Shown here piece by piece: positions 4,238 to 28,182 of a stretch of 49,788 nt of DNA. Every line of letters starts with the position of its first letter. The first letter of the stretch is position 1. Both the position numbers and the translations under genes were made by a program. The notes under the pieces were generated by a model, which worked only from the letters and a program-made list of their open reading frames with translations, had not been told where the DNA came from and did not search any database. This stretch comes from Candidatus Dormiibacterota bacterium (GTDB lineage: Bacteria; Chloroflexota; Dormibacteria; CF-121). The stretch covers positions 1 to 49,788 of the forward strand of contig DATBYU010000114.1 of the NCBI GenBank assembly GCA_036513555.1, read 5' to 3'.

Positions 4238-5829
4238 TGATCACTCCCTATAACGTGAACCCAGGTCAGCCCGGTGTTCAAATCCACCGGGTTGCCGCCG
4301 GCATCGTAGTAGACAACGGGTAAGTCGGGATTGGGATGTTTCCACGTGACGTGGATCATGCCGCCGTCGGAGTAGATGTCGGCGTAACCGTCCCCGCCGA
4401 GCTCGTAGTACTCGGTGTTGTAGGTGTGATGTACGCCGGTGTTCGCGGGGTTGGTGTCGGGGCGTGAAATCACGCGCTCGATAATCAGGTTTTTGGCATG
4501 GACCTGGCCGGTGCCGACGTTGGTGAACGGCGCTCCGTCCTGCCACTTGAGGTACTCACGCGAGTTGGGATCATAACGCCAAACGGCCCCGTGCTGCGGG
4601 ATCGTGACGCTGGTCGCCGGCGTGGCGCCCGGCAGCGGAACGTCCGGGTGGGCGGGTGCGATGTCGTAGTTAAGGGCGCCCAGGTTGGCCTGCGCGGTGT
4701 GGGCGGTGATCTTGTCGGGGCGGGCGATCACGTTGTGGGGGGCATAGCGATCCGCGGCCCGGTACATGTAGTCGTACATGTAGTTGTAGTCGTAGACCAC
4801 GTTCGGCCATTTCCACACCTGGCCCAGGACGTAGTCGTTCGCGCCGGAGCAATAGATCATGCCGCGGTACATCTGCTCGAGCGCGACCGTAATCAGGCGG
4901 CAGCTTCGCACCGGGCCGAGCAGGCTCGACGGTGGATGCCAGTAGATGGCTGACAACCGCGGGATGCCAAACTCGCTGATGTACTCGTAGATCATGTCGG
5001 CCTGCTGCATGCCGGTCTGTGGCCGCACCGTCGGCTGTGAGCTGTTTTCTATCTGGATGATGATCGGAGCTCCCGAGGCCCCGATCCGCACCGTGGATCC
5101 CGCTGAAGGAACCTGAACCACAGTTGCAAAGCTCAGCGTCCAATCGGCGATCGCGAGATCGTGCCTGCGGTTTTCCGCGGTCTTTGGGACCAGCAGCGTG
5201 TGGGTACGGCTGTGGGTGAGTGTCAGGGCGAGCGTGGCGCTCTGGCCAGTCTTGTCCCAGGTGATGCCCTTGGCATCGAGCGCCGTTCCGTCGAGAAGGA
5301 TGGGCGTGCGCAGGCTGTCCATCGGCTGGGAGAAGGTGAGCTTGAGGTTGCCTCGCAGCGGCACGGCTGGCTGGCCGTCGGTAAGCGCGCCGTCATTGAA
5401 GGTGGCGCTGGCGACTTTGGGCGCCGGCTCGGTATGGAACGCCATCGCATAATCCTGGCTCCCAAACCCGACGCTCTTGCGGGCGCCGATCACCTGGATG
5501 CGGTAAGCGGTATCGGGCTGCAACCAGGGATGGAACTCGAAGGTTCGGGGATTCTTGACCACGACGGTGAAAGGGGATAGTGGCGCGATGCGGAAGCCGT
5601 TCTCTACCGAGGCGACATCCATGTCCTGGTTGAATGCCAGGATGACGGCCGAGCTCCGGACGACGGCATGATCGCCGTCGGCAACGCTGGCGCTGACTGC
5701 CAGTGGCGCGGTGAGCGCGCGCAGCGCCAGCCCTGCGGCGGCCAGCAGGAGGACGATGGGGAAAATCCACCAGCGGCGACGCAGCGCCGCGGCAAGCCCG
5801 CTACCGCGGGTCGTGGTTTGACGCATCAA
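4234..5829 (-). CDS. Membrane-anchored DUF3048 (YerB-like) protein, tandem paralog
   Basis: Same architecture and the same conserved block (IQIENSSQPTVRPQTGMQQADMIYEYISEFGIPRLSAIYWH). Its TGA overlaps the ATG of the downstream paralog (ATGA at 4234-4237). Confidence 0.8.
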   Translation of the reverse strand: MMRQTTTRGSGLAAALRRRWWIFPIVLLLAAAGLALRALTAPLAVSASVADGDHAVVRSSAVILAFNQDMDVASVENGFRIAPLSPFTVVVKNPRTFEFHPWLQPDTAYRIQVIGARKSVGFGSQDYAMAFHTEPAPKVASATFNDGALTDGQPAVPLRGNLKLTFSQPMDSLRTPILLDGTALDAKGITWDKTGQSATLALTLTHSRTHTLLVPKTAENRRHDLAIADWTLSFATVVQVPSAGSTVRIGASGAPIIIQIENSSQPTVRPQTGMQQADMIYEYISEFGIPRLSAIYWHPPSSLLGPVRSCRLITVALEQMYRGMIYCSGANDYVLGQVWKWPNVVYDYNYMYDYMYRAADRYAPHNVIARPDKITAHTAQANLGALNYDIAPAHPDVPLPGATPATSVTIPQHGAVWRYDPNSREYLKWQDGAPFTNVGTGQVHAKNLIIERVISRPDTNPANTGVHHTYNTEYYELGGDGYADIYSDGGMIHVTWKHPNPDLPVVYYDAGGNPVDLNTGLTWVHVIGSDQ

Positions 5830-5967: not shown

Positions 5968-6279
5968 TTACGCCACCATTAGCCGGGGCAGGAGGAGTTG
6001 CTGGACATCGAAAAGGACGTCCAGAACCCGCACCGGGTCACGTGTGACGTTGCGGTTGAGCGCGCGCAGCAGTTTCCGGCTCAGCGGGCGCACGAACTGG
6101 GTGATCTCGTCCATCAGCGGTGCCGGCACGACACCCCGCCGATTCTCGATGATGTCTTCGACCGAGAGCAGAAAATCGTCAGCGCGGCGGACATCGGCGC
6201 GCCGCTTCAGCTCCTGGTTCCGCCGGTCGGCCGCCGCCTCGAACTCGCGATGAATCTCCTCGATGGCGTCGCTTAACAT
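5968..6279 (-). CDS. Hypothetical protein (103 aa)
   Basis: ATG at 6279 is preceded by AAGGGAG at appropriate spacing. The protein is helical and charged. I recognise no family. Confidence 0.5.
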   Translation of the reverse strand: MLSDAIEEIHREFEAAADRRNQELKRRADVRRADDFLLSVEDIIENRRGVVPAPLMDEITQFVRPLSRKLLRALNRNVTRDPVRVLDVLFDVQQLLLPRLMVA

Positions 6280-6437
6280 TGAATCGCTCCCTTCACTAAC
6301 CCCGATTACACCCAATTCACCGACGCATGAAAATTGATACGCACACTGTTACATAGTCGGCACTAGCTGTCAAGCACTTTCGCAATAGCCGGCCCCGGTG
6401 TGGGAAGGCCGGCGTGTAAAGTCCTGAACTCAGGCAA

Positions 6438-6785
6438 TCAGGCGATCAGGCCGTCTCCGGAGACTTCCTGTAGCGAGTCGAGCTCGCGGACCTGGTTGAG
6501 ATCGAGGCCCTGGTCGCCAAGTCTCTGGATCAACTGGAGGACGTACTTGACGCCGGCCAGGTTCACGCCTTTCTGGCGGGTGAGAAACTGGATGACGCGC
6601 ACGCGACGAATGTCGTCCTCGGAGTACCGGCGGCGGTTGGTCGCCGTCCGCTGCGGCTTGATAAGGCTCTCGCTCTCATAGATCATCAAGGTACGCGGAT
6701 GGAGGTTCAGAATCTCGCTCGCAATACTGGGCGTGAAGACCGCCCGTCCAGGAGCGATCGCTGGCATTCGCTTCCGCTTTCCCAT
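6438..6785 (-). CDS. HspR-like MerR-family transcriptional regulator (paralog 1)
   Basis: The core IASEILNLHPRTLMIYESESLIKPQRTATNRRRYSEDDIRRVRVIQFLTRQKGVNLAGVKYVL is the MerR HTH of the HspR type. ATG at 6785 is preceded by GGGTGAGGGA. Divergent from otsA. Confidence 0.8.
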   Translation of the reverse strand: MGKRKRMPAIAPGRAVFTPSIASEILNLHPRTLMIYESESLIKPQRTATNRRRYSEDDIRRVRVIQFLTRQKGVNLAGVKYVLQLIQRLGDQGLDLNQVRELDSLQEVSGDGLIA

Positions 6786-6930
6786 GTCCCTCACCCCTAA
6801 GACGGGACACCCATCCATCCCGCATGGCGGTAATTTTACAGCCACGATATCACATATTGGTCTGGGGCGCAACCTTGGCCGGAAGCTGAGAACTGGCCCG
6901 GGGGGGCCCGCGTAGAGTTAGAAGCAGGCC

Positions 6931-8493
6931 ATGCTGGCGATCGAGCAATATACCCGCCGCCTCCTCAAGGACTTCCACCCCATCGTGGCGGCCAACCGTC
7001 CGCCGGTGGACGTGGCGCACGATCCGGCCGATCGAACGCGATTCGTTCGCGGCGCCGGCGGGCTGGTGACCGGCCTGTCGGGGCTGGCGCTGGCGACGGG
7101 AGCGGTGTGGGTCGCCTCCATTCGGGACGGGCTGGAAGGGGAACTCGAACTCGACGGCGGCGGCGAACCCATGATGGTCGAAACCACCGACGGCTCACGC
7201 TTCCAGGTGAGCTGGGTCAATGCCCCACGCCTGACCTACGACCTTTACTACAACACGATTGCCAACCCGCTGCTCTGGTTTGTTCAGCACTACCTCTGGA
7301 ACCTGGCCGAGGCCCCCGTGCTCGACGACAGTACCCACCTCGCCTGGAACGAGGGGTACCGTCGGGTCAACCAGCTCTTCGCCCAACAGGTCATCCGTGA
7401 GGCACGCCGTGGCCGCAAGCGCCCGCTGGTCCTCTCGCACGATTACCACCTCTACCTGGTTCCCCGACTCGTCCGTCGCGAGCTTCCCGATGCGGTCCTT
7501 CAGCACTTCGTCCATATTCCGTGGCCGACTCCGCAGTACTGGAAAGTCTTGCCGAGCTACATGCGCGAGGAGATCATGGACGGCTTACTCGCAGCCGACA
7601 TCATCGGTCTGCAGACCCACTCGGATGTGCGCAACTTCTTGCTGACCTGTGAGGAGAACATGGGGTTGCCCGTCGACTTTCGCCAGCAGACCGCCTTCTA
7701 CCGCGGCCGCACCATCTGGGTCCGGCGCTACCCGATCTCGATTGATGTTCGGGAGTTCGAACGCACCGCAGCCAGTCCGGCCGTGGAGCGGGCAGAGCGT
7801 GAGATCTTGCGCTGGCGACCGGAGCAGCTGATCTACCGCGTCGACCGCATGGATCTCTCGAAGAACATCATCCGCGGCTTCTTCGGCTATGAGCGGCTCC
7901 TGCACGCGCATCCGGAGTGGCGGGGCCGCGTCGTCTTCTGGGCGCTCCTGCAGAAGACGCGGCAGGATGTCCCGCAGTATCGCGAGTATGCCCGGCAGGT
8001 GGTCCAGGTGGCCAGGGTGATCAATCAGAGGCTCGGGTCCGATTCATGGCAGCCGATTCGTCTCGAACTGCGCGACGACATGAATCGGGCGGTTGCGGGC
8101 TACAAGCAGTTCGACGTGCTGCTGGTGAATCCCATCTACGACGGCATGAACCTGGTTGCCAAGGAAGGAATCACGGTCAACCAACGGGGCGGCGCACTCG
8201 TCCTATCGGAGAATGCCGGGACCCACGAAGAGCTCGGAGAGTGGGCGATCACCATCAATCCCTTCGACGTCGACGCCACGGCGCAGGCGCTGCACCGCGC
8301 ACTGCTGATGGACCCGGTCGAACGTCACGCGCGCGCCGAGAAGATGCGTGCGGTCGTGCAGCAGAACGATGTGGCTCGTTGGATCTCCGCGCAGTTGCAG
8401 GACATCCGCGATCTGGTGGAGCCCTCCGCCGCTCGCCGGTCCGAGGTCGGGCTCGACGAACCGCTGCCGCTCGAGCGTGAGGTTATCCGTTAG
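6931..8493 (+). CDS. otsA: Trehalose-6-phosphate synthase (GT20)
   Basis: 520 aa with GT20 hallmarks: NPLLWFVQHYLWN and VNPIYDGMNLVAKE. Confidence 0.9.
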   Translation: MLAIEQYTRRLLKDFHPIVAANRPPVDVAHDPADRTRFVRGAGGLVTGLSGLALATGAVWVASIRDGLEGELELDGGGEPMMVETTDGSRFQVSWVNAPRLTYDLYYNTIANPLLWFVQHYLWNLAEAPVLDDSTHLAWNEGYRRVNQLFAQQVIREARRGRKRPLVLSHDYHLYLVPRLVRRELPDAVLQHFVHIPWPTPQYWKVLPSYMREEIMDGLLAADIIGLQTHSDVRNFLLTCEENMGLPVDFRQQTAFYRGRTIWVRRYPISIDVREFERTAASPAVERAEREILRWRPEQLIYRVDRMDLSKNIIRGFFGYERLLHAHPEWRGRVVFWALLQKTRQDVPQYREYARQVVQVARVINQRLGSDSWQPIRLELRDDMNRAVAGYKQFDVLLVNPIYDGMNLVAKEGITVNQRGGALVLSENAGTHEELGEWAITINPFDVDATAQALHRALLMDPVERHARAEKMRAVVQQNDVARWISAQLQDIRDLVEPSAARRSEVGLDEPLPLEREVIR

Positions 8494-9281
8494 GCGTTTG
8501 CGCAGACGTCGAGCAGTTGGGTGAGGAGATGGGTCACGCCCGGCACCCCATCCACCATCAGGTCGCAGTCGACGAACAGGTCGTCCGCGACCTCAGCTGA
8601 GCGCACGCCCACGGCCACGGTTCTGCGGCCGGCCATGCCCTTGAGGGCAGAAAACGCACTGGCATCCGTGCGGTCGTCGCCGGCATAGACGAGGCCCGCC
8701 GGCTGCAGGGCGACCGCCAGCCGGCGCAGGACCTCGCCCTTGTCAATCTCGATCGGCGGTCGGAGCTCCCACAGCAGTCGTCCGGGTTGGAGCTGCAGTT
8801 GCTCGTGACGCGCGATCTGTTGCATGGCCGGCTGCAGCGCCGCTTCGGACGCGGATGGATCCGAGGCCTGCCGAAAATGGACGCTGATCGCCGCCCGCTT
8901 GCGTTCGATTACGATGCCGGCCGCGCGGGCCTGGGGAAGCGCCGCCACCGCATCGGCGGCGCGCCGCAGTCGTTTCAGATATGGCTGCGCCTCAGCAACG
9001 ACGCGCGAGGCGCCATCCTGTCGCTCCTCTAGCCCGTGGTTACCAATGAAGAGGGCGTGAGGTAGCGGTAATCGGCTGACCAGGAAATCCGTGTCGCGGC
9101 CGCTGATGATGACGACCCGTTGCAGGCACTGGCTGAGCTCGCTGAGGAGCGTGACCGCGTGTGGATCGGGAGCCGCTTGCTCCGGGTCCGGCACGATGGG
9201 CGCCAGGGTCCCGTCGAAGTCGAGGCCGAGCAGGATGCGCGAGGCGGGAACGCCGAGGAGACGCTCGCGGAGTGAGGTCAG
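8490..9281 (-). CDS. otsB: Trehalose-6-phosphate phosphatase (HAD)
   Basis: Contains HAD motifs IISGRD and YAGDDRTD. The catalytic motif I, LGLDFDGTL, lies upstream of the first ATG/GTG/TTG at 9194. I therefore extend the CDS to the in-frame CTG at 9281, which overlaps the upstream gene's TGA. The start is uncertain. Confidence 0.75.
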   Translation of the reverse strand: MTSLRERLLGVPASRILLGLDFDGTLAPIVPDPEQAAPDPHAVTLLSELSQCLQRVVIISGRDTDFLVSRLPLPHALFIGNHGLEERQDGASRVVAEAQPYLKRLRRAADAVAALPQARAAGIVIERKRAAISVHFRQASDPSASEAALQPAMQQIARHEQLQLQPGRLLWELRPPIEIDKGEVLRRLAVALQPAGLVYAGDDRTDASAFSALKGMAGRRTVAVGVRSAEVADDLFVDCDLMVDGVPGVTHLLTQLLDVCANA

Positions 9282-9580
9282 GCCCAGAGATGGCGGGCGC
9301 CGGCGAGCTCCGGAAACTCCGTCTCCGGGATCTGGAGCCGGCTCTGGACGGCCGCCTCCATCAGGGAGAAGATCACCTTGACGCCGGCGAGATTGATGCC
9401 GTGCACCGTGGTGAGCTCGCGGATCAGCCGGATCCGCTCGATGTCCCGGCGGGAGTAGCGGCGGCGCTGGGTCGGCGTCCGTTCAGGCGCGATCAGGTTC
9501 TCACTCTCGTAGACGAAGAGTGTCCGCGGCTCGATGTCGAACATATCGGAGACTTCGCTGGACTTATGCGGCATTGTCAC
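9278..9580 (-). CDS. HspR-like MerR-family transcriptional regulator (paralog 2, most divergent)
   Basis: RTLFVYESENLIAPERTPTQRRRYSRRDIERIRLIRELTTVHGINLAGVKVIF. GGAGGG lies 6 nt before the GTG at 9580. It sits directly upstream of otsB. Confidence 0.8.
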   Translation of the reverse strand: MTMPHKSSEVSDMFDIEPRTLFVYESENLIAPERTPTQRRRYSRRDIERIRLIRELTTVHGINLAGVKVIFSLMEAAVQSRLQIPETEFPELAGARHLWA

Positions 9581-9827
9581 GTGCTGCCCTCCAGGACCCG
9601 AGACTGCAAACCATTATAACCAACATATCAAAATTTGTTATAAACGGCGAAGCGAAGCCTCGTTTGTGTGTTTTGTGGCGTCACTGTGCGCAGCGTGACG
9701 GAGCACAAGAGGTCACCCATTGACTGTACGGTCGCGTATCACCTTAGCCGTGGGAACTCCCGCTTGAACGAAGGCGGGCTTGTCGCTACTGTCACGCCCG
9801 AACGGCACCTGTGCCGAGTTTTCGAGC

Positions 9828-10958
9828 ATGTCGCGCATCTTACGGCAACTCACGGTGTTTGGAGGGAGGGTCGTGCTGGGTGTGATGCTTTTTGCACTCC
9901 TCACGCCCCCCTTTGGGCTGCGCGCCTATCTGGAGGCCCGCGCCCAGGATCAAGCGCAGGCGGCCCGCGTGGTCAGCAGCTTCGGGCGCCCGGTCGGCGC
10001 GATCCTCAAGCTGCCGGTCAGCGCGCGTGGGTTTGCGCAGACCCCACGCTCACCGCTCGACGGCATCCGCGGCAAGGGGTCCTGGCTCATGATCTTCGAC
10101 GGCGATTGGAACGATCCGGATGCGGACCGCGCGGCGGCGATCGTCGATGCGGCCGTGCGGGCTGACCTCAGCCACCTCTACATCCGAATCGCCGATTCCA
10201 AGCACCATTTCTACGGCGCTCCGGCGCTGCAGGACCTGCTGCCGATCGCCCACGCGCACGGGCTGAGCATCATCGGTTGGATCGAGCCGATGCTCGACGA
10301 CCCGACCGCCGACACCGCCGATGCGCTGGCGGCCGCCCAGTTCGAGGAACAGGGCCAGCGGCTCGACGGCCTGGCGCTCACCATCGAGGGCAACAGCACC
10401 TCGGACCCGAACGTCGGCCAGTACCTGTCGGGAATCCGCGGCGGCATCACCGGCATGAATGGGCTGGGCGACCGCTACCTGCTGATCGCCAGCACGTTGC
10501 CCACGCCTTATGACCACCCGGGCTATGCGTACGCCACCATGTCGCGTTACTGCCAGGTCTTTGCGCCGATGGTCTACTGGCGTGCCACCGGGCTCCCGCA
10601 GTACAGCGGCGCCGACGGGACGCGGGCCTATGTCGACCAGGTCTTTCAACAGTTCCGCGATCCCGGGGTCAATCCGTTCAAGCGTCCCCTGACGATCACC
10701 GCGCAAACCTACGACGCCGCACCCGAGTACGGCACGCCGGGGGCACCGCCCGCCGACGAGATCATCACCTCGATGAATGAGACCCGCGCCCAGGGCGGCA
10801 TCAGCTGGTCCTATTACCGGCTGGCGAATGCCGACAATGGCGTCACCGGGGACGAGCAGCAAGCGATCACGGCTTACCCGTTCTGGCAGCGATACCGCGG
10901 AGGGGGGATCGCGGCCAAGGCATTGATCGCCCTACCTGACCAGCCAGTCGCCTATTAA
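9828..10958 (+). CDS. Secreted/membrane-anchored hypothetical protein, possibly a glycoside-hydrolase-like TIM barrel
   Basis: Long ORF (the track starts it at 9780; the ATG at 9828 gives a signal/TM-like N-terminus). High GC3. The functional call is weak. Confidence 0.6.
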
Positions 10959-10980
10959 GAGAAGAGGGGTTGAGGAACAA

Positions 10981-12948
10981 ATGAAAACCTTTTTCCGCCG
11001 TCTTTCCATCCCGGCGGGCCTGCGCACAAAGCGCGTCGTGGTGCCCGCGCTCGCGCTGGTCGGGGTGCTCCTCCTCGGTGGGCTATGGTTCCTCGGACAC
11101 TCCGGCACCAATTCCGTCTGGAATCAGCCCCAGACACCGATCAGCGACGTGCTCGACCGCGTCGATCGCGGTGACATCGTGGCTGCCACCATCAGCGGCC
11201 AGCGCATCCTGCTGACCGATACCGCCGGCCGGCAGTCGTGGACCATCGAAAAAGAGTCGTCGATGGGCACCACCGAGCAGTATCTGCGCAGTCACAACGT
11301 CAAGGTCGGCGTCCAATCGACGGACGATGTCTCCTTCACCTCGGTGCTGCCGAACCTGCTGGGCCTCCTGGTCCTGCTCGCGCTGCTGTTCATCATGTTG
11401 CGCCGTTCGAACCTGATGGGAAATCCGATGGGCGCGATGACCAAGCACCTGGCCGAAGCCAAGGTCGGTGACGGCGACCAGGTCACGTTCGACCAGGTGG
11501 TCGGTGTTGACGAGGCCAAGCACGAGTTGGAGGAAGTCGTCGAATTCCTCAAGGCACCCGGGAGTTTCGGCCAGCTCGGAGCGCGGATGCCGCGCGGGAT
11601 CCTGTTGGTCGGTCCGCCTGGCACCGGCAAGACGCTGCTGTCGCGCGCCGTGGCGGGCGAGGCAAAAGTCCCCTACTTCTCTCTCAGCGGCTCCGACTTC
11701 GTCGAGATGTTCGTGGGCGTCGGCGCGGCGCGGGTGCGCGACCTCTTTAAGCATGCGAAGAAGAACGCGCCCTGTATCGTCTTTCTCGACGAGATCGACG
11801 CACTCGGCCGCAAACGGGGTGGCGCCCAGATCCGGACCAACGAAGAGCGCGAGCAGACGCTGAACCAGCTGCTGGTGGAGATGGACGGGTTCAACACCGA
11901 TTGCGCGGTGGTCGTGATCGCGGCCACCAACCGGCCCGACGTCCTGGACCCGGCTTTGCTCCGCTCCGGCCGGTTCGACCGCCGCGTCGCGATCGACGCC
12001 CCGGACCTCAACGGCCGCCGCGCCATCCTGAACCTCTATGCGGCGCAGAAGCCGCTCGCCGACAACATCAACCTCGACATCGTGGCGCGGCAGACGCCGG
12101 GATTCACCGGGGCCGACCTGGCGAATCTCCTCAACGAGGCGGCGATCCTGGCGGCGCGCAACAAGAAGCTGGCGATCGGCAAGCAGGAGCTGGAAGAGGC
12201 CGGCCTGCGCGTGATGGCGGGCCCGGAAAAGCGCAGCCGGATGATCACACCGGAAGAGAAGGCGATCATCGCCTACCACGAGGTCGGACACGCCCTCGTC
12301 ATGAAGTCGATTGCCAAGAGCGATCCGGTGCACAAAGTCTCGGTCGTCTCGAGGGGGCAGGCGCTCGGCGTCACCATCCAGTTGCCGTTGAAGGATCGCT
12401 ACCTGACGTCGAAGTCGGAGTTGATCGCGCGCATGGCGGCCGCGATGGGCGGTCGAGCCGCTGAAGAGATCATCTTCGGGGACGTCACCACTGGCGCCAA
12501 GCAGGACATCGAGTACGCGACCAACGTTGCACGCCAGATGGTGTGTGAGTTCGGGATGAGTGAGCGGCTTGGGCTGGTGACCCTGCACCGCAAGGGCGAT
12601 GGTGACAGTCTTTTCTTTTCCGAGTTAACCGCGGCCGACGTCGATGCCGAGGTCAAAGCGCTGACCGATGCGGCCTACCGCCAGGCGTATGAGATCTGCG
12701 AGTCACGACGTGCCACGCTCATCCGGATCGCCGATCACCTGCAACTGGTGGAGACGATGGATGGAGAGGAGCTCGATCGGTTGCTGCTCGAGGAGGCCGC
12801 CGCGCCGCCCGTCAGCGTGGGGCTACCCGAGATCGCGGAGTCAGCCGCCGCGCCCAGGATCGCAGCCGCTGAGGCGCATAACTGGGACGATGGCTCGAGC
12901 GATTCGGTGCACGAGAACGAGCCAGGGCCACCGATCGCGGCCAGCTAA
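10981..12948 (+). CDS. ftsH: ATP-dependent zinc metalloprotease FtsH
   Basis: Two N-terminal TM segments, Walker [12 protein letters not shown] second region of homology, and the zinc motif HEVGHAL. Confidence 0.95.
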
Positions 12949-12955
12949 CGACGAA

Positions 12956-13300
12956 CTAAATAATCTCCTCGTAGAGGTCGTAGACCTGCTTCAGGTCGTC
13001 GGGCGGTTTGATGCCGCCGCGCTTCAATGACTCCAGCAGCATGAGGATGTACTTGACGCCTGCGAGATTGACCCCTTTCTCCCGGGTCAATTGCTGGATC
13101 ACCTGCAGCTTGCGCACGTTGCGCTGCGAGTAGCGGCGCCGGTTGGTCGCGGTGCGATAGGGCTCGATCAGCCCAAGGTCTTCGTACATCATCAGGGTTC
13201 GCGGGTGGGTCTCGAGGATCTCGGAGGCCACGCTGATCGTGTAGAGCGCCTTGTCGAGGTCGAAGGCTCCACCGATCCGTGGATCGCGGTTGGGGACCAC
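12956..13300 (-). CDS. HspR-like MerR-family transcriptional regulator (paralog 3)
   Basis: YTISVASEILETHPRTLMMYEDLGLIEPYRTATNRRRYSQRNVRKLQVIQQLTREKGVNLAGVKYIL. The GTG start lies 3 nt after the stop of the receiver gene. Confidence 0.85.
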   Translation of the reverse strand: MVPNRDPRIGGAFDLDKALYTISVASEILETHPRTLMMYEDLGLIEPYRTATNRRRYSQRNVRKLQVIQQLTREKGVNLAGVKYILMLLESLKRGGIKPPDDLKQVYDLYEEII

Positions 13301-13303
13301 CGT

Positions 13304-13693
13304 CTATTCCTTGACCCAATCCTGGACGCCGCGGCTCAAGCTGGCGGGCGTGGTCTCGGACTTGATCAGGTAGTCGAGGGCGCCGAGCTTCAGTCCGCGA
13401 TCGACTAATTCCTTCTCGCCGTAGTTGGACAGGATGATGACCGGAATGTTCTTGGTGACTCCATCGGACCGAAGGTTCTCGAGAACGGCGAAACCGTCCA
13501 TCTTCGGGAGTCGAATGTCGAGGAAGACGATGTCCGGGACCTGGTTTTTGGCGTGGTCGAGGCCCTCCTCGCCGGATTTCGCGACCGTGACCCGGTAGCC
13601 ATCCAACTCCAGCTTGAGCTTGTACATCTCAGCCACCGCCGGATCATCTTCGATGAATAGGACGTTTACGTCCTCGTCGACGACTTCACTCAT
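13304..13693 (-). CDS. Stand-alone CheY-like receiver protein
   Basis: 129 aa. Acidic pocket IEDD, phospho-acceptor context DIVFLDIRLPKMDG, ILSN and YLIK. No output domain. AGGAGGGG RBS. Confidence 0.9.
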   Translation of the reverse strand: MSEVVDEDVNVLFIEDDPAVAEMYKLKLELDGYRVTVAKSGEEGLDHAKNQVPDIVFLDIRLPKMDGFAVLENLRSDGVTKNIPVIILSNYGEKELVDRGLKLGALDYLIKSETTPASLSRGVQDWVKE

Positions 13694-13903
13694 GTCCCCT
13701 CCTTAGGACGCCAGATCGCAAAACAGACATCATGCCTGTCATCTTTCCTCCCTTCCCATCGGTGGTTAGTATAAAACAACTTCACCCAATTTCCTGAATG
13801 GGCGACGTACCCAACCGAATGTCCGGCGCGCCCAAAGGCAAGTGATACGATGGCGTCGCGGTCCCCCGGAAGCACCGTGCTGCCGTGGAGGCGCGCGTTT
13901 TGC

Positions 13904-14125
13904 ATGCGATATCTACGAGGTCTTCGGCACGGCGCGATCGCCGGGGCGATCCTGGGGCTGCTGTACGCGCCGGAATCGGGCGTGGCCATGCGGCGCCGGC
14001 TCTCGCGACTGCTGGGCCAGGCCCAGGCGATGATGGCCGGCGATGGCGGTGCGCCGGTGACCCCCGCGGCAACACCCCGGCGCCGAGCGGCAGGAGCAGG
14101 AGAAAGCAGGGCCAAGCGCCCGTAG
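13904..14125 (+). CDS. YtxH-domain protein
   Basis: GAIAGAILGLLYAPESGVAMRRRL matches the YtxH motif (G-rich TM followed by APxSG). ATG at 13904 lies inside the longer track ORF. Confidence 0.6.
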   Translation: MRYLRGLRHGAIAGAILGLLYAPESGVAMRRRLSRLLGQAQAMMAGDGGAPVTPAATPRRRAAGAGESRAKRP

Positions 14126-14135
14126 GAGGACGAGG

Positions 14136-14510
14136 ATGGATCAGACTGTGGAGAAGACGATCGACCGGTTGAGCGAGCTGCTCGACCGTGCCACCAAAAC
14201 CGCTCAGGACCTCGAGGTGAAGGACCGCCTGACGGATGCCGTCTCGGCCTTGCGCCGGACCCGGATCACCCAGGACGACGATGCCGGCGTGGAGCGTTTT
14301 GTCACTGGACTCCTGCTCGGGGTCGCGGTCGGCTTTGGGCTTGCGCTGCTGCTCGCCCCCAAATCCGGCGAGGAGATGCGCGACGACTTGATGCAGCGCG
14401 GCATCGAGCTGCGCGACCGAGCCGGCGGGCTGGCGTCAAAGATGTCCTTCGGGGATGGCGAGCAGGGCCGCACCGAGAAAGCATCCAGCGACCAGCCGGG
14501 GATCGCCTAG
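14136..14510 (+). CDS. YtxH-domain protein
   Basis: GLLLGVAVGFGLALLLAPKSGEEMRDDL carries the YtxH motif. ATG is preceded by GGAGGA. Confidence 0.7.
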   Translation: MDQTVEKTIDRLSELLDRATKTAQDLEVKDRLTDAVSALRRTRITQDDDAGVERFVTGLLLGVAVGFGLALLLAPKSGEEMRDDLMQRGIELRDRAGGLASKMSFGDGEQGRTEKASSDQPGIA

Positions 14511-14526
14511 TTCAGACTCGCGCTCG

Positions 14527-16788
14527 TTAGTTGTTTCCCTGGTTGTTGGGGGTCGGTGAGGGCGACGGCGTGGGTGGCGGCGCGGGTGGTGGTGGCGGCG
14601 GGTTGATGATGCAGTAGACGCCGTTGACCGTGATTTGCGAGTAGGTCAGCGTGTAGGGGTTGTAGTTCGCGGGGAGCTTGCACTGCGGCCAGGGCTGCGC
14701 GAGTGTGCCCGGCAGGCTCTCGGTACCGGGCAAGAAGTAATTCGCGCCCACGGCGTGAACGCTGGCCGGCACCGGGTACCACTCGTCGGGTTTCCCGGCA
14801 AGCGCCTGCATCATGAACTTGTGCCAGATGGGCGCAGCGCCAACGATGCCCGTCGAGTTGTGGCTGAGCGGCTTGTTGTCCGGGTTGCCGACCCACACCG
14901 CCGTCGCCAAGCTCGGCGTGAAGCCGATCGTCCAGTTGTCCTTGAAGTCGTTGGTGGTGCCGGTCTTTGCGGCGACCGTCCGGCCGGGCAGCGTGAGGTC
15001 GCCGTGGCAGCCGAATTCCAGGCAGCGGTTGCGGTCGTCCGACATGATCTGGGCGATGATGAACGCGACGTTCTCGTCTACGGCGCGGAACTCATTCTTC
15101 TTCGCGTCGTAGGTGAAGACGTCGCGACCTAGGCCATCTTTGATGTTGAGAATTGGCGCCTCGCGATGACGGACCCCGAGCGTCGCCAGCGTCGAGGCCG
15201 CCGTCGCCATGTCGGCGAGCCGCACCGGGTACGCGCCCAGGGTCAGGCTCATCCCGTAGTTGTCCGGGCTCTGGTCGACGCACGGGAGCGGACCCAAGCA
15301 GGTCAAGCCCATGCGGTGCGCCATGTCGACCACCGCCGGGATGCCGGTGCGCAGCTCCGTCTTCAGCGCCGGGATGTTCATCGAGTTGCCCATCGCCATC
15401 TTCAGCGGCAGCGTGCCGTGAAAGCGGCGATCGTAGTTTTGCGGGATGTACTTGCCGAAACCGGCCGGGTCGCCGCCGATGGGAAAGACCAGCGGCTCGT
15501 CCAGGATCGGACTGACCATGTTCACCTTGCGGCTTTCGATGGCGGCGGTGTAGGTGAAGATCTTGAAGCTCGAGCCCGGCGGGCGCGGCTGGTCGTAAGC
15601 GAAGTTGAACTGACCGCCTGGACGGTTGTAGTCGACGCCGCCAACCATGGCCAGCACCTCGCCGGTCTTCGGATCCATGCTCACTAGCGCTGCGTCGTGG
15701 AAGTTATAGAAGTTGCCCTTCTGGGCCACCTGGTCGTAGACGGTCTGCTCCGCGAGATGTTGCAGGTTGAGGTCGAGGCTGGTGTAGACGCGGTAACCTT
15801 TGCGATCGTCGGGTTTGATGTTGTAGGGGGGATTGGCGAGCGTCTTCAAGACGTAATCGACGAAGTAGGGCGCCTCGAACTTCGTGGTCGGTGGGAAGAT
15901 CTGCAGTTTGACGGCATAAGCGGCTTCGGCCTGCGCCGCAGTGACGTACTTCTCGCCGACCATCGCGGCGAGCACCTGCGCCTGCCGCTGCTTGGCGGAT
16001 TGCAGGTTCACCACCGGGTTGTACTGCGTCGGCGCCTGCGGGAGTCCGGCGAGCATGGCGGCCTGTGCCAGGGATAAGTCGTGCGCGTTGGTCTGGAAGT
16101 AGCTGCGTGCCGCCGCCTCGATACCGTACGTCTGACTGCCATAGAAGATGGTGTTGAGGTACATCTCGAGGATCTGGTTCTTGCTGTACTCACGGTTCAG
16201 CTCGATGGCCAGGATGGCTTCCTTGAGCTTGCGTTGGATGTCCGCTGGGGCATTCGAACCGATGTAGACCTGCTTGACCAGCTGCTGGCTGATGGTGCTG
16301 CCACCCTGCTTGACCGCGTGGTGCTGATAGTTCGCGATGGCGGCGCGAACGATGCCGCCGAGGTCGATGCCACTGTTCGAGTAAAACGTGCGGTCCTCGG
16401 TGGCGAGGGTCGCCTTCACCACCCAGGGCGAGATGTAATTGAGCGGCACCACGATGCGATGGTCGCCGGCCTTGCCGATGTCGGCGAGCAAGGTGCCATG
16501 GCGGTCGTAGATCAGGGTGTCCTGCTGCATCTTGTTGGAGGCCAGCCCGCTGACGGCCGGCAGGGTACCCACGGCCTGCGCCGTGATCGCCGGAATGCCG
16601 AGCAGAGGCAGCAGGAAGACGACCAGCAGGCCGAGGATCAGGACCCGCCGAAAGTCCGCACGGCTACGCCGGCGCCAGCGCTCGACGTTGCGCTGACTCC
16701 GTCGGCGGGTGGCGAGGCTTAGGCGCTCAGAAACCCGAAGATCCCTGAAAGGAGGAGCCACAGAGAGACGAGGATAACGGCTCCCCAC
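14527..16788 (-). CDS. Class A penicillin-binding protein (transglycosylase/transpeptidase)
   Basis: GT51 motifs EDRTFYSNSGID and RKLKEAILAIELNREYSK. Transpeptidase motifs SSFK, SMN and KTGTT. Proline-rich C-terminal tail. Confidence 0.9.
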   Translation of the reverse strand: MGSRYPRLSVAPPFRDLRVSERLSLATRRRSQRNVERWRRRSRADFRRVLILGLLVVFLLPLLGIPAITAQAVGTLPAVSGLASNKMQQDTLIYDRHGTLLADIGKAGDHRIVVPLNYISPWVVKATLATEDRTFYSNSGIDLGGIVRAAIANYQHHAVKQGGSTISQQLVKQVYIGSNAPADIQRKLKEAILAIELNREYSKNQILEMYLNTIFYGSQTYGIEAAARSYFQTNAHDLSLAQAAMLAGLPQAPTQYNPVVNLQSAKQRQAQVLAAMVGEKYVTAAQAEAAYAVKLQIFPPTTKFEAPYFVDYVLKTLANPPYNIKPDDRKGYRVYTSLDLNLQHLAEQTVYDQVAQKGNFYNFHDAALVSMDPKTGEVLAMVGGVDYNRPGGQFNFAYDQPRPPGSSFKIFTYTAAIESRKVNMVSPILDEPLVFPIGGDPAGFGKYIPQNYDRRFHGTLPLKMAMGNSMNIPALKTELRTGIPAVVDMAHRMGLTCLGPLPCVDQSPDNYGMSLTLGAYPVRLADMATAASTLATLGVRHREAPILNIKDGLGRDVFTYDAKKNEFRAVDENVAFIIAQIMSDDRNRCLEFGCHGDLTLPGRTVAAKTGTTNDFKDNWTIGFTPSLATAVWVGNPDNKPLSHNSTGIVGAAPIWHKFMMQALAGKPDEWYPVPASVHAVGANYFLPGTESLPGTLAQPWPQCKLPANYNPYTLTYSQITVNGVYCIINPPPPPPAPPPTPSPSPTPNNQGNN

Positions 16789-17105
16789 CCCGCTCCGCTG
16801 GCGATGGTCCGAAGAGGTGACCGGCGCAGCCGCCGGATCTGGCGCCGACGAGCGTCGAGGGACGAGAGGCCGCTAGCAGTTACTGAGTGAGTCGCGTGCG
16901 GGATACTTATCAATTCAAGCCCCTAAAATCCTACTCTGTGGGTGAACTAAAAGCTGATGGAGCCAGTATAACGTAAGTAGGATTCGCTTGTGAGAGTCGA
17001 GTACGCGTTGCCATCGTCGACTGTCCAACGGGAGCCCGGGGCGGATGGTTACGCCGACGGTGAATGGGCGGATCCGCGTGATCGCGGCCCTATAATGGGG
17101 CCGCC

Positions 17106-17627
17106 TTGTCGCCTTCGGAAGCCACGCCCAAAGTCGGAACGGTATTCTGTCGCGAGTGCGGCAGGCCGATCGAGGCGGACGCCCGTTTTTGTCGATTCTG
17201 CGGGAAGTCCCAGGCCGACCCCGCGGCCGGCTCCGCCTCCACCGCCTCGCATTCTGGCTCGACTGGCCCGACCGGCGCCGGGCTTGAGCACTGGCTACGC
17301 GAGCTCTTTCCCCGCCACCATCTGCAAGACGAGTTCATGCACATCGGGACCATTGCCGCCTTCCTCATGGCGCTGATCGGGTTTGTGCTGGGTTTCTTCC
17401 TGGCCTACAGCTGGCTCGGCACGAACTTTCTGCTGGGGTCCGTCGCCCTGCTCCTTTTCCTCATTCTGCGAGAGTCGACGCTGAGTCACATTCGGGTCCG
17501 TGGAAGCGCACCAACACCGACCCCGACTGGCGGCCGGACCCACGCGGGTCGCCGACCCGCACCGACGCCCGGAGTCCCCGCCGAGGCCGCCAACGCCGAA
17601 TCCTCGCCGCCCCCGACGCCGAAATAG
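17106..17627 (+). CDS. Zinc-ribbon membrane protein (hypothetical)
   Basis: CRECGRPIEADARFCRFCG zinc ribbon, followed by two TM helices and a Pro-rich tail. TTG start. Confidence 0.6.
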   Translation: MSPSEATPKVGTVFCRECGRPIEADARFCRFCGKSQADPAAGSASTASHSGSTGPTGAGLEHWLRELFPRHHLQDEFMHIGTIAAFLMALIGFVLGFFLAYSWLGTNFLLGSVALLLFLILRESTLSHIRVRGSAPTPTPTGGRTHAGRRPAPTPGVPAEAANAESSPPPTPK

Positions 17628-17630
17628 AAA

Positions 17631-17654
17631 AGCCGGCCTGGCGGCAGGCCGGCT
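17631..17654. terminator. GC-rich hairpin between convergent genes; intrinsic terminator mainly for csbD
   Basis: AGCCGGCCT-GGCGGC-AGGCCGGCT. On the minus strand it is followed by TTTTC. Confidence 0.55.
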
Positions 17655-17670
17655 CCTCAGCTCTTAAGAG

Positions 17671-17859
17671 CTAGAGGTTCTTGTCGCCTTCGGTCGCTTC
17701 GCCCTCGAGTGGCTCACCATCCCGCATCTTGCGGGCCGCGCCTTCGACAGCGCCCTTCGCCTTCTGGCCTTTGCCTTCCCACTCCATTTTCTTGTCGCCG
17801 GCCAGCTTGCCGCCAGTATCCTTAGCCTCGCCCTCGACTTTGTCCCGCAACTCGCCCAT
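17671..17859 (-). CDS. csbD: CsbD-family general stress protein
   Basis: 62 aa. KVEGEAKDTGGKLAGDKKMEWEGKGQKAKGAVE is typical CsbD. Confidence 0.8.
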   Translation of the reverse strand: MGELRDKVEGEAKDTGGKLAGDKKMEWEGKGQKAKGAVEGAARKMRDGEPLEGEATEGDKNL

Positions 17860-17994
17860 CTGGCACCTCCGGTAATGTTTGACGCGATATCGCGCCTGTT
17901 ATGAAGCATTATAACGTGCCACTAATGGTCGGGCTACAACTTGATGCCGGGGCTGGGGGTTTATTTGAGTTCACATGTATTTACGAATCCTCCC

Positions 17995-18023
17995 TTGAGC
18001 CCGCTCACGTTGCCACCTATACT
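17995..18023 (+). promoter_or_regulatory. Sigma-70-like promoter for HspR paralog 4
   Basis: TTGAGC, 17-nt spacer, TATACT. The small inverted repeat TGAGC-CC-GCTCA overlaps the -35. Confidence 0.45.
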
Positions 18024-18106
18024 GACCATCGCCTCGCTCGACGCGACATCAGGCGGTGGCGTTATGGTCTTCGATCGGAAACCGGTAAACATTTTTGGAG
18101 GGCCGC

Positions 18107-18454
18107 ATGGCTATCGCCGTCAAGCGTGAAACCCGACGCGACACGAACATCTCCCTGGACAAACCGATTTACACCATCAGCGTGGCGTCTGAGATCTTGG
18201 AGACCCATCCGCGGACGCTGATGATGTACGAGCACCTCGGGCTGGTCGTGCCGAAGCGGACCTCGACCAACCGACGACGCTTCTCGCAGCGCGACGTCAT
18301 GAAGCTCCAGACCATTCAGAAGCTGACCCGGCAGCACTCGGTCAACCTGGCCGGTGTCCGCTACATCCTCAAACTCCTCAAGCTGTTGCACGAACACCAG
18401 CTGCCGTCGCCAGTCGAGCTCCGCGACATCGACGTCGCGCAGCTGGACGTCTGA
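18107..18454 (+). CDS. HspR-like MerR-family transcriptional regulator (paralog 4)
   Basis: YTISVASEILETHPRTLMMYEHLGLVVPKRTSTNRRRFSQRDVMKLQTIQKLTRQHSVNLAGVRYIL. ATG at 18107 follows GGAGGG (the track ORF starts at the TTG at 18095). Confidence 0.85.
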   Translation: MAIAVKRETRRDTNISLDKPIYTISVASEILETHPRTLMMYEHLGLVVPKRTSTNRRRFSQRDVMKLQTIQKLTRQHSVNLAGVRYILKLLKLLHEHQLPSPVELRDIDVAQLDV

Positions 18455-18588
18455 ACACCGCGCGTCACTTACGCGGCGACTGACCGTAACCGTGCGATTT
18501 AGCCTGCGTAGTTTTTTTGCGGATTGTTATGCGCTCGCCATAGGCTTTGCCGACAGTCAGCCGTGGATACTTTCTGATGGCGTCCATG

Positions 18589-18617
18589 TTGACATGGCTC
18601 CAGGGCTTGCCTATAAT
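18589..18617 (+). promoter_or_regulatory. Perfect consensus sigma-70 promoter
   Basis: TTGACA (18589-18594), exactly 17 nt, TATAAT (18612-18617). It lies in an AT-enriched intergenic region. Confidence 0.6.
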
Positions 18618-18645
18618 TTCACGTAGTTCTCTTGCCCCCCTCTTC

Positions 18646-18677
18646 GGGCCCTCCCTTCGGAGGGCCTTAACTTTTCT
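18646..18677 (+). terminator. Terminator-like hairpin, possibly an attenuator
   Basis: GGCCCTCC-CTTC-GGAGGGCC (8 bp) followed by TTAACTTTTCT, about 25 nt downstream of the predicted transcription start. Confidence 0.5.
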
Positions 18678-18792
18678 GGGGCTGTTCGGAGGGACCCGCG
18701 TATGCCTTGTAGAGACTGCACCGTTTTGCTATCCATAAGTCCCGCGCGAATCACGGAGTTCGTCTATACTGCTTCGCGCCAAGAGGAGTGTT

Positions 18793-19221
18793 ATGGAAAG
18801 TAAGACGCGCCGCAGCGCCGGCGCGAACCGCACGACCCAGGCCGACGAAGACCTGGTCGATGTCCTCCTGGTGGAAGACGATCCATCGGTGCTCGAGATG
18901 TACCGATTGAAGTTGGAGCTCGACGGTTATCGGGTCAACACCGCCCTCGACGGTGAGGAGGGCCTCAAGAAGGCCGGCGACCTCGCTCCCGACATCATCT
19001 TTCTCGATATCCGCCTGCCGAAAATGGACGGGCTGGAAGTCCTGAGGAAATTGCGCGCGCAGGAGAAGACCCGCGATATTCCGGTTATCATCCTCTCTAA
19101 CTACGATGAAGAGGATCTGGTCGCGCGAGGGCTGCGCCTCGGGGCGCATGAGTACCTCATCAAGGCCCGCACGACGCCGACCAGCCTCTCGGAAGGTATC
19201 GAGGATTGGCTAAAGGAGTAA
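18793..19221 (+). CDS. Stand-alone CheY-like receiver protein
   Basis: VEDD, DIIFLDIRLPKMDG, ILSN, YLIK. Paralog of 13304-13693. GAGGAG RBS. Confidence 0.9.
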   Translation: MESKTRRSAGANRTTQADEDLVDVLLVEDDPSVLEMYRLKLELDGYRVNTALDGEEGLKKAGDLAPDIIFLDIRLPKMDGLEVLRKLRAQEKTRDIPVIILSNYDEEDLVARGLRLGAHEYLIKARTTPTSLSEGIEDWLKE

Positions 19222-19553
19222 CGCGCCGGGCGCCGACCGAAACGACTCTCTCCCTGGACAAACCTATCTACACCATTAGCGTGGCGTCCGAGATCCTCCA
19301 GACGCACCCGCGAACCCTGATGATGTACGAGCACCTTGGCCTGGTGATCCCCAAGCGCACGTCGACGAACCGCCGGCGCTTCTCGCAGCGGGACATCCGG
19401 AAGCTCCAGGCGATCCAGACCCTCACGCGCCAGCATGGGGTCAACCTCAACGGCGCGCGCTACGTCCTGCGGCTGTTGCGCATCCTTGTCGATAACGGCC
19501 TCCAAGCGCCACCCGAGTTGCGCGACCTCGACGTCAAAGAACTAGACGTCTAG
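19206..19553 (+). CDS. HspR-like MerR-family transcriptional regulator (paralog 5)
   Basis: YTISVASEILQTHPRTLMMYEHLGLVIPKRTSTNRRRFSQRDIRKLQAIQTLTRQHGVNLNGARYVL. The TTG start overlaps the receiver gene by 16 nt. Confidence 0.85.
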   Translation: MAKGVTRRAPTETTLSLDKPIYTISVASEILQTHPRTLMMYEHLGLVIPKRTSTNRRRFSQRDIRKLQAIQTLTRQHGVNLNGARYVLRLLRILVDNGLQAPPELRDLDVKELDV

Positions 19554-25271: not shown

Positions 25272-25378
25272 CGGTAGTACCGCGGACCAAGTCTCAGGTT
25301 CCTCGCCGAGTCAGAGAGCCGGATTTCTGCGCGCACTTACTGTAAAGGACAACGTTGGCGGTCCGCAAACGTGAACGG

Positions 25379-27867: not shown

Positions 27868-27871
27868 CTCG

Positions 27872-28108: not shown

Positions 28109-28182
28109 TGTGCTATACGGTGCTAAGCATAACGGTCACGGACGCTCCGAGTCATTGGCGTATTCAGGCTGATGCCCAGCGA

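Follow-up and report, generated by a model that had tools for sequence, protein, structure and literature searches.

HspR is the dnaK operon's heat-shock repressor in Streptomyces, Mycobacterium and Helicobacter, where it autoregulates as the last gene of the operon with DnaK as co-regulator, and GlnR and TnrA of Bacillus nitrogen control are acted on by glutamine synthetase (GS) and GlnK. To our knowledge, every characterised member of the structural branch that holds GlnR, TnrA and HspR is switched by a partner protein acting on a weak dimer or on a C-terminal helix. Stand-alone receivers make up a large share of the bacterial response regulators and their outputs are mostly unknown, the described ones acting via protein partners, as in CheY-FliM, Spo0F, DivK, CpdR and, in general stress responses, SdrG/MrrA. 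Here we describe a stretch of 49,788 nucleotides (the window, by which we mean the whole of it) from a Candidatus Dormiibacterota soil bacterium (assembly GCA_036513555.1, contig DATBYU010000114.1), in which five small proteins with a MerR-type helix-turn-helix (HTH), M1 to M5, are encoded and two of them, M3 and M5, directly follow genes for the stand-alone receivers (REC) R3 and R5. The results showed that the pairing of REC and MerR genes is beyond chance, paralog-specific and conserved. The overall explanation that we propose, minimal MerR repressors with the receiver as their phosphorylation-dependent effector, is one to which we would give an even chance of being correct. The genes concerned are as follows.

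6438 to 6785, minus strand: M1, minimal MerR protein of 115 amino acids (aa) with no REC partner, divergent from otsA
9278 to 9580, minus strand: M2, 100 aa, the most divergent paralog, with no N-terminal arm, ahead of otsB on its strand with 83 nt between
13304 to 13693, minus strand: R3, stand-alone receiver of 129 aa, first gene of the R3-M3 bicistron
12956 to 13300, minus strand: M3, 114 aa, paired with R3, its GTG start 3 nt past the R3 stop
18107 to 18454, plus strand: M4, 115 aa, 338 nt upstream of R5-M5 and divergent from csbD
18793 to 19221, plus strand: R5, stand-alone receiver of 142 aa, 67% identical to R3
19206 to 19553, plus strand: M5, 115 aa, paired with R5, its start overlapping the R5 end by 16 nt
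2 to 208, plus strand: partial REC, the C-terminal part of a third receiver that is cut by the window edge

A preliminary description of this DNA had reported five MerR-HTH genes of 100-115 aa with a common core, and the open reading frame (ORF) listing, the Pfam searches and the alignment all agreed with it. All seven ORFs (five MerR-HTH and two REC-only) were present at the coordinates above, each of M1-M5 matched Pfam MerR_1 with E-values of 5e-17 to 2e-15 (6e-17 for M1) and was also assigned the Pfam MerR domain, and the motifs PRTL..YE, RT.T.RRR.S and NL.G were invariant among the five. The pairwise identity was 41% to 71%, with 71% for M4 against M5, and M1-M5 share one subfamily and do not fall into unrelated MerR subfamilies. 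The start codon of M1 was kept in 39 orthologues.

The two receivers had been described as lying directly ahead of M3 and M5, as keeping the acidic pocket and phospho-acceptor, and as having neither an output domain nor an adjacent kinase, all of which was borne out. Pfam Response_reg was the sole domain of R3 and R5 (E-values of 1e-25 and 5e-26), and the CheY catalytic positions E/D12, D13, D57, S/T87, Y106 and K109 were intact in both and in more than 120 homologues, so that the phospho-site residues make R3 and R5 look phosphorylation-competent. The REC-only architecture, with no fused output domain, was found in R3, R5 and 240 homologues, which leaves phosphotransfer or an interaction between proteins as the output. 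R3 and M3 share a reading frame in which a stop codon and one further codon part them; this 3-nt gap is preceded by an AAGGA Shine-Dalgarno sequence within the 3' end of R3, and the 16-nt overlap of R5 and M5 places the M5 start (TTG here, GTG in orthologues) at a position that is conserved in four orthologous loci. A third receiver does end at position 208 as previously reported, but the word paralogous was loose for it, as its identity to R3 was 38% over some 60 residues; it is not followed by a MerR gene, the next gene being a GH38 gene on the opposite strand.

The conservation of the pairing was examined in a locus scan with one genome per species, which returned 508 stretches carrying the family motifs together with a relative of the query; the best 80 loci were analysed by calling their ORFs and classing these against the window proteins, and the orthologue counts in this and the next sentences refer to these 80. 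Nearly all of them were metagenome-assembled genomes (MAGs) of Candidatus Dormibacterota, many deposited as 'Chloroflexi', with a few Saccharibacteria. A REC gene stood directly upstream on the same strand in 24 of the 24 M3-class genes (72% to 97% identical), at an estimated gap of -4 to +6 nt in 21 and of 19-111 nt in the other three, where the MerR ORF was called short. In comparison, an adjacent REC was found for none of the 39 M1 orthologues and none of the 48 M2 orthologues. The triple MerR-REC-MerR arrangement of M4-R5-M5 recurred in four distant MAGs (L041, L066, L078, which is a Ca. Aeolococcus, and L080). The pair also stays together on relocation: in L081, L082 and the P0459 contig, which represent a second genomic neighbourhood, its flanking genes are rsfS and a GT4 gene and its two members are 5-11 nt apart, the order in the distant lineage being mreBCD-pbp2-rodA-rplU-rpmA-obg-nadD-rsfS, REC-MerR (5-nt gap) and GT4, with a second contig alike. 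R3 and R5 (67% identical) have diverged to a similar degree as M3 and M5 (64% identical), and the pair therefore looks to have been duplicated as a unit. The pairing that was first noticed in a single genome is accordingly kept across relatives, in all 24 M3 orthologues, in the triple of four MAGs and in a second context.

The same REC and MerR subfamilies are neighbours in two phyla. In three related Saccharibacteria contigs, a PAS-HisKA-HATPase kinase gene is followed by a gene for a 129-aa REC, 52% identical to R3, and this kinase-REC unit adjoins a class A penicillin-binding protein (PBP) and a 100-aa MerR protein of the M1-M5 subfamily. When the Saccharibacterial REC was used as the query, its best matches outside its own clade were Dormibacterota RECs. 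In four further, more-divergent relatives (59% to 63% identical), a kinase gene and a REC gene are followed by a convergent MerR gene and a divergent hrcA-grpE operon, with dnaK and dnaJ following hrcA-grpE where the contig extends far enough. These loci of the Candidate Phyla Radiation (CPR) thus add a cognate-looking kinase and a heat-shock operon, and from these relatives PAS-HisKA is the likely kinase type for the RECs. The receivers had been called orphans, which holds for the window, while the relatives show a PAS-HisKA kinase beside the REC. In one Saccharibacteria genome (L040, 4591-5367), an IS200-like Y1 transposase gene lies between the MerR gene and the kinase-REC operon, and the neighbourhood survives.

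Some further observations were made in the CPR. In many low-GC genomes (L085, L109, L125 and others, at about 4200-4900), the MerR gene is divergent from a gene for a hydrophilin of 85-93 aa that is LEA_5-like and has KGG repeats, at loci flanked by ileS and pyrG; through this neighbour, protectants of the desiccation type are connected with the MerR subfamily across phyla. In L166 (4001-7124), the gene of a REC that belongs to the REC subfamily of the pairs and is 55% identical to the Saccharibacterial REC stands by itself, convergent with clpB and with no MerR gene, a further case of a heat-shock gene as neighbour. The promoter of hrcA-grpE-dnaK-dnaJ in L163 (5900-5950) and L164 (5830-5870) carries a CIRCE-like repeat, TTAGCAGTC-N9-TACTGCTAG, over its -10 box, so that this CPR operon is probably HrcA-controlled, whatever the MerR protein does.

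Based on these data, we propose the following mechanism. M1-M5 are paralogous minimal MerR-type DNA-binding proteins of the HspR/GlnR/TnrA branch, built of a winged HTH, an N-terminal arm of 15-20 residues and short C-terminal helices with no long coiled coil. They would most likely act as repressors that bind as weak dimers to a 17-bp dyad (ideally TGATA-N7-TATCA, treated below), which in the regulators' own promoters lies across the -10 box and transcription start, or else in the 5' leader, and would thereby give autoregulation; further targets would be stress and envelope promoters, namely those of M1 (divergent from otsA), M2-otsB, PBP1A and small membrane proteins. M3 and M5 are translationally coupled to dedicated, phosphorylatable stand-alone receivers, each of which would serve as the effector protein of its MerR partner. 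A HisKA-type kinase, encoded next door in Saccharibacteria and presumably elsewhere in the genome of the Dormibacterota source, would phosphorylate the receiver and alter its binding to the C-terminal helix or dimer surface of the MerR protein, so that operator binding would be switched. The outcome would be a three-protein 'split response regulator' running from kinase to REC to MerR, parallel to the action of GS and GlnK on GlnR/TnrA and of DnaK on HspR. It is because the characterised members of the branch are all partner-switched that we propose the co-encoded receiver as the partner, and the direct contact between the two is something that we infer.

Several observations weigh against this mechanism. 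The adjacency of REC and MerR genes proves co-expression and not contact. Three of the five window paralogs have no REC partner, and in other Dormibacterota the M4/M5-like genes stand alone after otsA-otsB-PBP1A; the pairing therefore belongs to particular paralogs and not to the whole family, and the regulators can work without a REC. A search for REC-MerR fusions gave none in the 120 closest homologues of MerR, in the 120 closest of REC for each of two REC queries, or in the 150 best representatives matched by the MerR profile. No histidine kinase adjoins R3-M3 or R5-M5 and no HisKA-type kinase is encoded in the window, and about 45 other CPR loci with this MerR, returned by a metagenome scan for the Saccharibacterial MerR, have neither a REC nor a kinase nearby and carry the hydrophilin gene divergent from the MerR gene, so that the kinase-REC linkage is restricted to some lineages. 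The nearest kinases in the window are HisKA_3 types at 28.6-33.6 kb; they were considered as partners of R3 and R5 and rejected, being of another class than the CPR HisKA kinases and each adjoining a NarL-type regulator, and these local regulators are probably their partners.

The main rival takes REC and MerR to be co-expressed and mechanistically separate: the MerR protein would autoregulate the bicistron, in the manner of hspR as last gene of the dnaK operon, while the receiver, a mere regulon member that does not touch it, would have its output elsewhere, e.g., in serving as a phosphate sink or in modulating a protease (such as the neighbouring FtsH), a chaperone or another kinase. The absence of REC-MerR fusions and the three paralogs and many relatives that function with no REC fit this possibility, as do the dyad in the R3-M3 leader, found in 18 of 24 orthologues and expected under autoregulation, the related REC that stands alone beside clpB, and the convergent position of FtsH relative to R3-M3. 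However, translational coupling was strict in every M3 orthologue and was retained after relocation, REC and MerR have diverged in parallel, and kinase and REC are again linked to MerR in a second phylum with another gene orientation, which together exceed what shared regulation requires. The coupling, the relocation, the parallel divergence and the cross-phylum neighbourhood of kinase, REC and MerR favour a functional unit, although none of them proves contact, and we regard separate outputs as an unlikely account that still deserves to be taken seriously.

M1-M5 resemble a family whose members are controlled by partner proteins. HspR (NCBIfam NF047375) was the top family for all five, with scores of 83, 70, 91, 92 and 87 bits for M1 to M5 in comparison to the equivalog cut-off of 105 bits, and JGI labels the homologues 'HspR'. 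The NCBIfam TnrA model gave about 25 bits against a cut-off of 140, and the nearest solved structures by sequence were GlnR and TnrA (4r4e, E 4e-10). The AlphaFold2 model of M3 (predicted local distance difference test score 89, predicted template-modelling score 0.78) has a disordered N-terminus, a strand at 18-20, a winged HTH from residue 22 and helices at 59-74, 79-95 and 101-111, of which only the last two are C-terminal helices. Its best structural match was the GlnR-DNA complex 7tea_C, with a template-modelling score of 0.93 (target-normalised) and a root-mean-square deviation (rmsd) of 1.0 A over 76 columns, followed by 4r4e and 4r22. The rmsd was 1.0-1.4 A against GlnR-DNA complexes in comparison to 6-7 A against CueR, SoxR and BmrR, the poor superposition on these canonical MerRs being due to the lack of a long dimerising coiled coil. 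A MerR profile search over 1.84 billion representatives gave 27 clusters at E 1e-30 or better, so that the subfamily is narrow. Judged by sequence scores and the fold model, M1-M5 are not bona fide HspR and are closest to the minimal GlnR/TnrA branch of MerR. The earlier label HspR-type therefore stands as far as one subfamily with HspR as best match is meant, and fails for HspR proper, given 70-92 bits against 105 and the lack of its operator.

Members of the TnrA/GlnR branch have an extra N-terminal arm, lack the coiled coil, form weak dimers on DNA and bind effector proteins through the C-terminal region, and their box is a 17-bp TGTNA-N7-TNACA at promoters with the optimal 17-nt spacing, in comparison to 19-20 nt in classical MerR promoters (Schumacher et al. 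2015, PMC4335299). The HspR operator HAIR is CTTGAGT-N7-ACTCAAG (PMC6102357). As a candidate, the canonical HAIR operator was rejected, since the window held a single match at 3 mismatches, in a coding region, against 0.87 expected, which is chance level. Natural fusions were seen among the MerR-profile representatives P0243, P0257, P0286 and P0341, namely tandem MerR-MerR, which is a covalent dimer, MerR with three BON domains, and MerR with a Lon substrate-binding domain. BON is the OsmY-type osmotic-stress domain.

It is improbable, in our view, that M1-M5 are ordinary HspR paralogs under chaperone titration. This would mean that DnaK or another chaperone acts on an acidic C-terminal tail, in the way HspR is titrated in Streptomyces and Mycobacterium, with the receivers as a second input or irrelevant. 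The best NCBIfam match and the JGI names speak for it, together with the CPR gene divergent from hrcA-grpE-dnaK-dnaJ and a candidate operator that has the N7 geometry of HAIR and a TGA...TCA core. Nevertheless, the scores lie under the equivalog cut-off, the window has no HAIR match above chance and no dnaK among its annotated ORFs, five copies with trehalose, PBP and hydrophilin genes are unlike a single-copy repressor of the dnaK operon, the CPR dnaK operon bears a CIRCE-like (HrcA) element, and the conserved coupling to REC is left unexplained.

A candidate operator for the MerR proteins was obtained from alignments of orthologous upstream regions, in which the conserved blocks converged on a 17-bp quasi-palindrome, TKAYA-N7-TRTMA. 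The sites of interest in the window are as follows.

6836 to 6852: TTACAGCCACGATATCA, 0 mismatches, at the M1 promoter, in the region between the divergent M1 and otsA
6335 to 6351: TGATACGCACACTGTTA, across the -10 box and the transcription start in the orf5968 promoter (gene at 5968-6315)
9614 to 9630: 0 mismatches, in the M2 promoter, overlapping TATAAT
13725 to 13741, minus strand: TGACAGGCATGATGTCT, in the 5' leader of the R3-M3 operon
16955 to 16971: overlapping the -10 box of the PBP1A promoter, with TTAYA-N7-NRTCA kept in orthologues
17079 to 17095: weaker candidate site, overlapping the TATAAT of the zinc-ribbon gene, with only the -10 half well conserved in orthologues
41961 to 41977: perfect dyad TGATAGCGACGGTATCA, overlapping the -10 box (TTGACG-17-TATGAT) of the 42004-42219 gene, 22 kb from the cluster

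At no more than one mismatch, the window held 13 sites in comparison to 2.6 +/- 1.7 in shuffles. Six of the 13 lay in intergenic regions of the cluster, in the promoters of orf5968, M1, M2, PBP1A and the zinc-ribbon gene and in the R3-M3 leader. When spacers of 2 to 12 were compared, 13 sites were found at N7 and 1-3 at each other spacer, with 6 versus 0-1 for the cluster intergenic regions. Among orthologues, sites with at most one mismatch were present in 39 of 39 M1 promoters, 38 of 38 M2 promoters and 18 of 24 R3 leaders, the last extending to distant orthologues (TGATAGGATTGCCATCA). In the M1 promoter, the half that lies downstream relative to M1 varied only as T-R-T-M-A, and in the orf5968 promoter, whose dyad was the best conserved of the whole set, the -35 TTGACA was invariant and both half-sites were kept in 38 orthologues while the central 5 nt varied. 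A looser early pattern, TGAYAG-N5-CTRTCA, gave 2 sites against 0.06 expected at no more than two mismatches in intergenic regions that were not used in its derivation (P about 0.001), and the dyad at 41961-41977 was likewise not used in deriving the pattern. Out of sample, the upstream regions of 39 unique CPR MerR genes contained 12 perfect sites in comparison to 0.66 +/- 0.79 expected, and the excess peaked at N7. These results make TKAYA-N7-TRTMA look like a real candidate operator. The promoters associated with it have 17-nt spacers and the sites lie over the -10 box or transcription start, from which we infer repression by the MerR proteins rather than MerR-style activation.

The operator has its own weak points. 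The dyad was derived post hoc and refined after the data had been viewed; at no more than one mismatch there was no site at R5-M5 (0 of 5), M4, csbD, ytxH or ftsH; and in some promoters the two halves fall on core promoter elements, TGATA on an extended -10 (TGnTA) and TATAA on the -10 box, so that part of the signal may be promoter sequence. A search for exact shared palindromes (halves of 4 or 5 nt, spacers of 0-14, eight intergenic regions) found nothing beyond shuffles, and an operator would accordingly have to be degenerate. A TTATAAC repeat at the M2 and csbD promoters was rejected as a candidate because it was not kept, orthologues having TTATCAC. Taken to its end, the coincidence with -10 elements would turn the 17-bp dyad into the mark of one class of promoters, with TGnTA as extended -10 and a conserved start region, which a housekeeping or an alternative sigma factor recognises; the regulon deduced from the dyad would then be void. 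This might be argued from the M1 and M2 promoters, where TGATA directly precedes plausible -10 hexamers, and from TATAA equalling the -10 box in the promoters of M2, the zinc-ribbon gene and PBP, but it is hardly probable, since the enrichment is confined to spacer 7, one half-site of the orf5968 and 42004 promoters is downstream of the -10 box yet conserved or perfect, the R3 site is about 20-35 nt downstream of the -10 box, and the CPR sites, which were strongly enriched out of sample, mostly read TTACA-N7-TGTAA, a form unlike a -10 box.

The R3 leader and the M4-R5 spacer showed other features. In the R3 leader (13694-13745, minus strand), a purine-rich run resembling a Shine-Dalgarno sequence, GGGAGGAAAG, and an ATG/GTG precede the conserved dyad and begin an upstream ORF of about 18 codons whose end overlaps the R3 start codon; it was open in several orthologues and its peptide was poorly conserved, and the element may be read as an upstream ORF or as an operator. 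An explanation of the conserved leaders by RNA was rejected, as there were no Rfam matches and the R3 leader was not significantly structured (z -0.69). In a related MAG (L059, about 3790-3920), three tandem hairpin repeats of about 45 nt (GAGCCCGCTCCGGCGTGGAAAAGCCGGCGGTTCAAT) lie between the dyad and the R3 ribosome-binding site, and they look like an element of the REP (repetitive extragenic palindromic) or MITE (miniature inverted-repeat transposable element) kind. The 338-bp M4-R5 spacer contains, at 18589-18676 on the plus strand, a perfect sigma-70 promoter (TTGACA-17-TATAAT), with a GC-rich hairpin, GGGCCCTCC-CTTC-GGAGGGCC, and a T-rich tail about 30 nt past it. Such an arrangement may belong to a short RNA, to a leader or to an attenuator; the spacer had no Rfam match and its fold was only weakly significant (z -1.8).

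The genes around the regulators, and the remote one with the perfect dyad, are listed below.

5968 to 6315, minus strand: conserved protein of 115 aa with no Pfam family, directly downstream of M1
6931 to 8493, plus strand: otsA, Glyco_transf_20, 7e-114
8490 to 9194, minus strand: otsB, Trehalose_PPase, 4e-28
10981 to 12948, plus strand: FtsH protease paralog with Peptidase_M41 and AAA domains, convergent with R3-M3 with 7 nt between
13850 to 14510, plus strand: two YtxH-like genes, divergent from R3, with Pfam scores of 52 and 31 bits (cut-off 37.5)
14527 to 16788, minus strand: class A PBP (PBP1A) with Transgly and Transpeptidase domains, inside the cluster
17106 to 17627: gene of a zinc-ribbon membrane protein
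17671 to 17859, minus strand: CsbD-like small stress protein, E 8.6e-7 and 29 bits in comparison to the Pfam cut-off of 40, divergent from M4
42004 to 42219, plus strand: predicted membrane protein of 71 aa with an acidic, His-rich N-terminus, one hydrophobic helix and a Ser/Pro-rich tail, with no Pfam match

The trehalose synthesis genes otsA and otsB are bracketed by M1 and M2, and the block M1-otsA-otsB-M2 was kept in more than 35 loci. A class A PBP recurred beside the same MerR subfamily in Saccharibacteria and in other Dormibacterota. The protein encoded by orf5968 is probably a core member of the putative regulon. No dnaK, grpE or clpB gene was found among the annotated ORFs of the window, which cover the 6-20 kb cluster and not every ORF of the 49.8 kb. 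The gene names given in the preliminary description were solid for otsA, otsB, ftsH and one ytxH, all with clear Pfam matches; the second ytxH (31 bits) and csbD (29 bits) are sub-threshold in Pfam and plausible, and the class A PBP inside the cluster was not named there. Its suggestion of a desiccation/heat protection regulon was borne out in part, as there are candidate sites at M1/otsA, M2-otsB, R3-M3, PBP1A and small unknown genes and, at no more than one mismatch, none at ftsH, ytxH, csbD, M4 or R5-M5.

Elsewhere in the window, two tandem paralogs of 521 and 531 aa are encoded at 2672-5829 on the minus strand, each with an N-terminal membrane anchor, Big_5 Ig-like domains and the N- and C-terminal domains of DUF3048. 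A signalling island at 24492-33621 comprises an HTH_17-MEDS protein, a truncated Mutator-family transposase (25702-26712), two NarL-type regulators, a PAS-HisKA_3 protein with no HATPase_c match, a protein with two receiver domains (30445-31392) and a REC-PAS-PAS-HisKA_3-HATPase hybrid kinase, and is followed by a tRNA gene at 33681-33753.

Within the literature open to searching, queries that included Dormibacterota and Saccharibacteria found no published pairing of REC with HspR or MerR, and while the components are familiar, the conserved REC-MerR combination and the operator appear to be undescribed. Somewhat short of an even chance, in our estimate, is the broader proposal that kinase, receiver and minimal MerR form an unrecognised regulatory architecture that would extend from Dormibacterota to Saccharibacteria and would act on heat, desiccation or envelope protection genes through TGATA-N7-TATCA. 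If true, a MerR-type DNA binder would be a new output class for stand-alone receivers, a transcription factor could receive two-component signals through a separate subunit, and the setting of minimal MerR activity by partners such as GS, GlnK and DnaK would come to include a partner of a third kind. Dry and polar soils hold abundant Dormibacterota, and the genomes of Saccharibacteria are reduced; we know of no cultured model for Dormibacterota. For these two poorly known groups, the proposal would offer a first regulatory model with a candidate operator and a target list (trehalose synthesis, class A PBP, hydrophilins), and it is checkable with purified proteins and synthetic DNA.

Compared with the canonical MerR activators (MerR, CueR, SoxR and BmrR), M1-M5 share Pfam MerR_1 and the MerR winged HTH, and differ in having neither a long coiled coil nor a ligand-binding domain and in promoter spacers of 17 nt instead of 19-20 nt. 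They are similar to HspR in that it is their best curated family and is, as proposed for them, a small MerR-type repressor, in a candidate operator formed by an inverted repeat with a 7-nt spacer and a TGA...TCA core, in CPR relatives that adjoin hrcA-grpE-dnaK-dnaJ, and in the operon order, the REC gene ahead of the MerR gene holding the place of dnaK, whose product is the co-regulator of HspR. They differ from it in scoring 70-92 bits under a cut-off of 105, in being present in five copies instead of one, in having no dnaK or clpB in the cluster, in a half-site that in the window is TKAYA and not TTGAGT, and in having a receiver and not a chaperone as genomic partner. The likeness to TnrA/GlnR is closest in sequence and fold, with the N-terminal arm present (not in M2) and the coiled coil absent, and includes the 5-N7-5 geometry of a 17-bp operator, which is a candidate here, the 17-nt promoter spacers and, as we propose, an activity set by a separate effector protein at the C-terminal region, whereas the curated TnrA model is not matched, the half-site differs, neither glutamine synthetase nor any nitrogen gene is linked to M1-M5, and the effector that we propose is a two-component receiver. 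Similar to the known stand-alone receivers, R3 and R5 consist of a REC alone, keep the phospho-acceptor pocket intact and have relatives in a HisKA kinase operon in Saccharibacteria; unlike them, their conserved genomic partner is a MerR-type DNA-binding protein.

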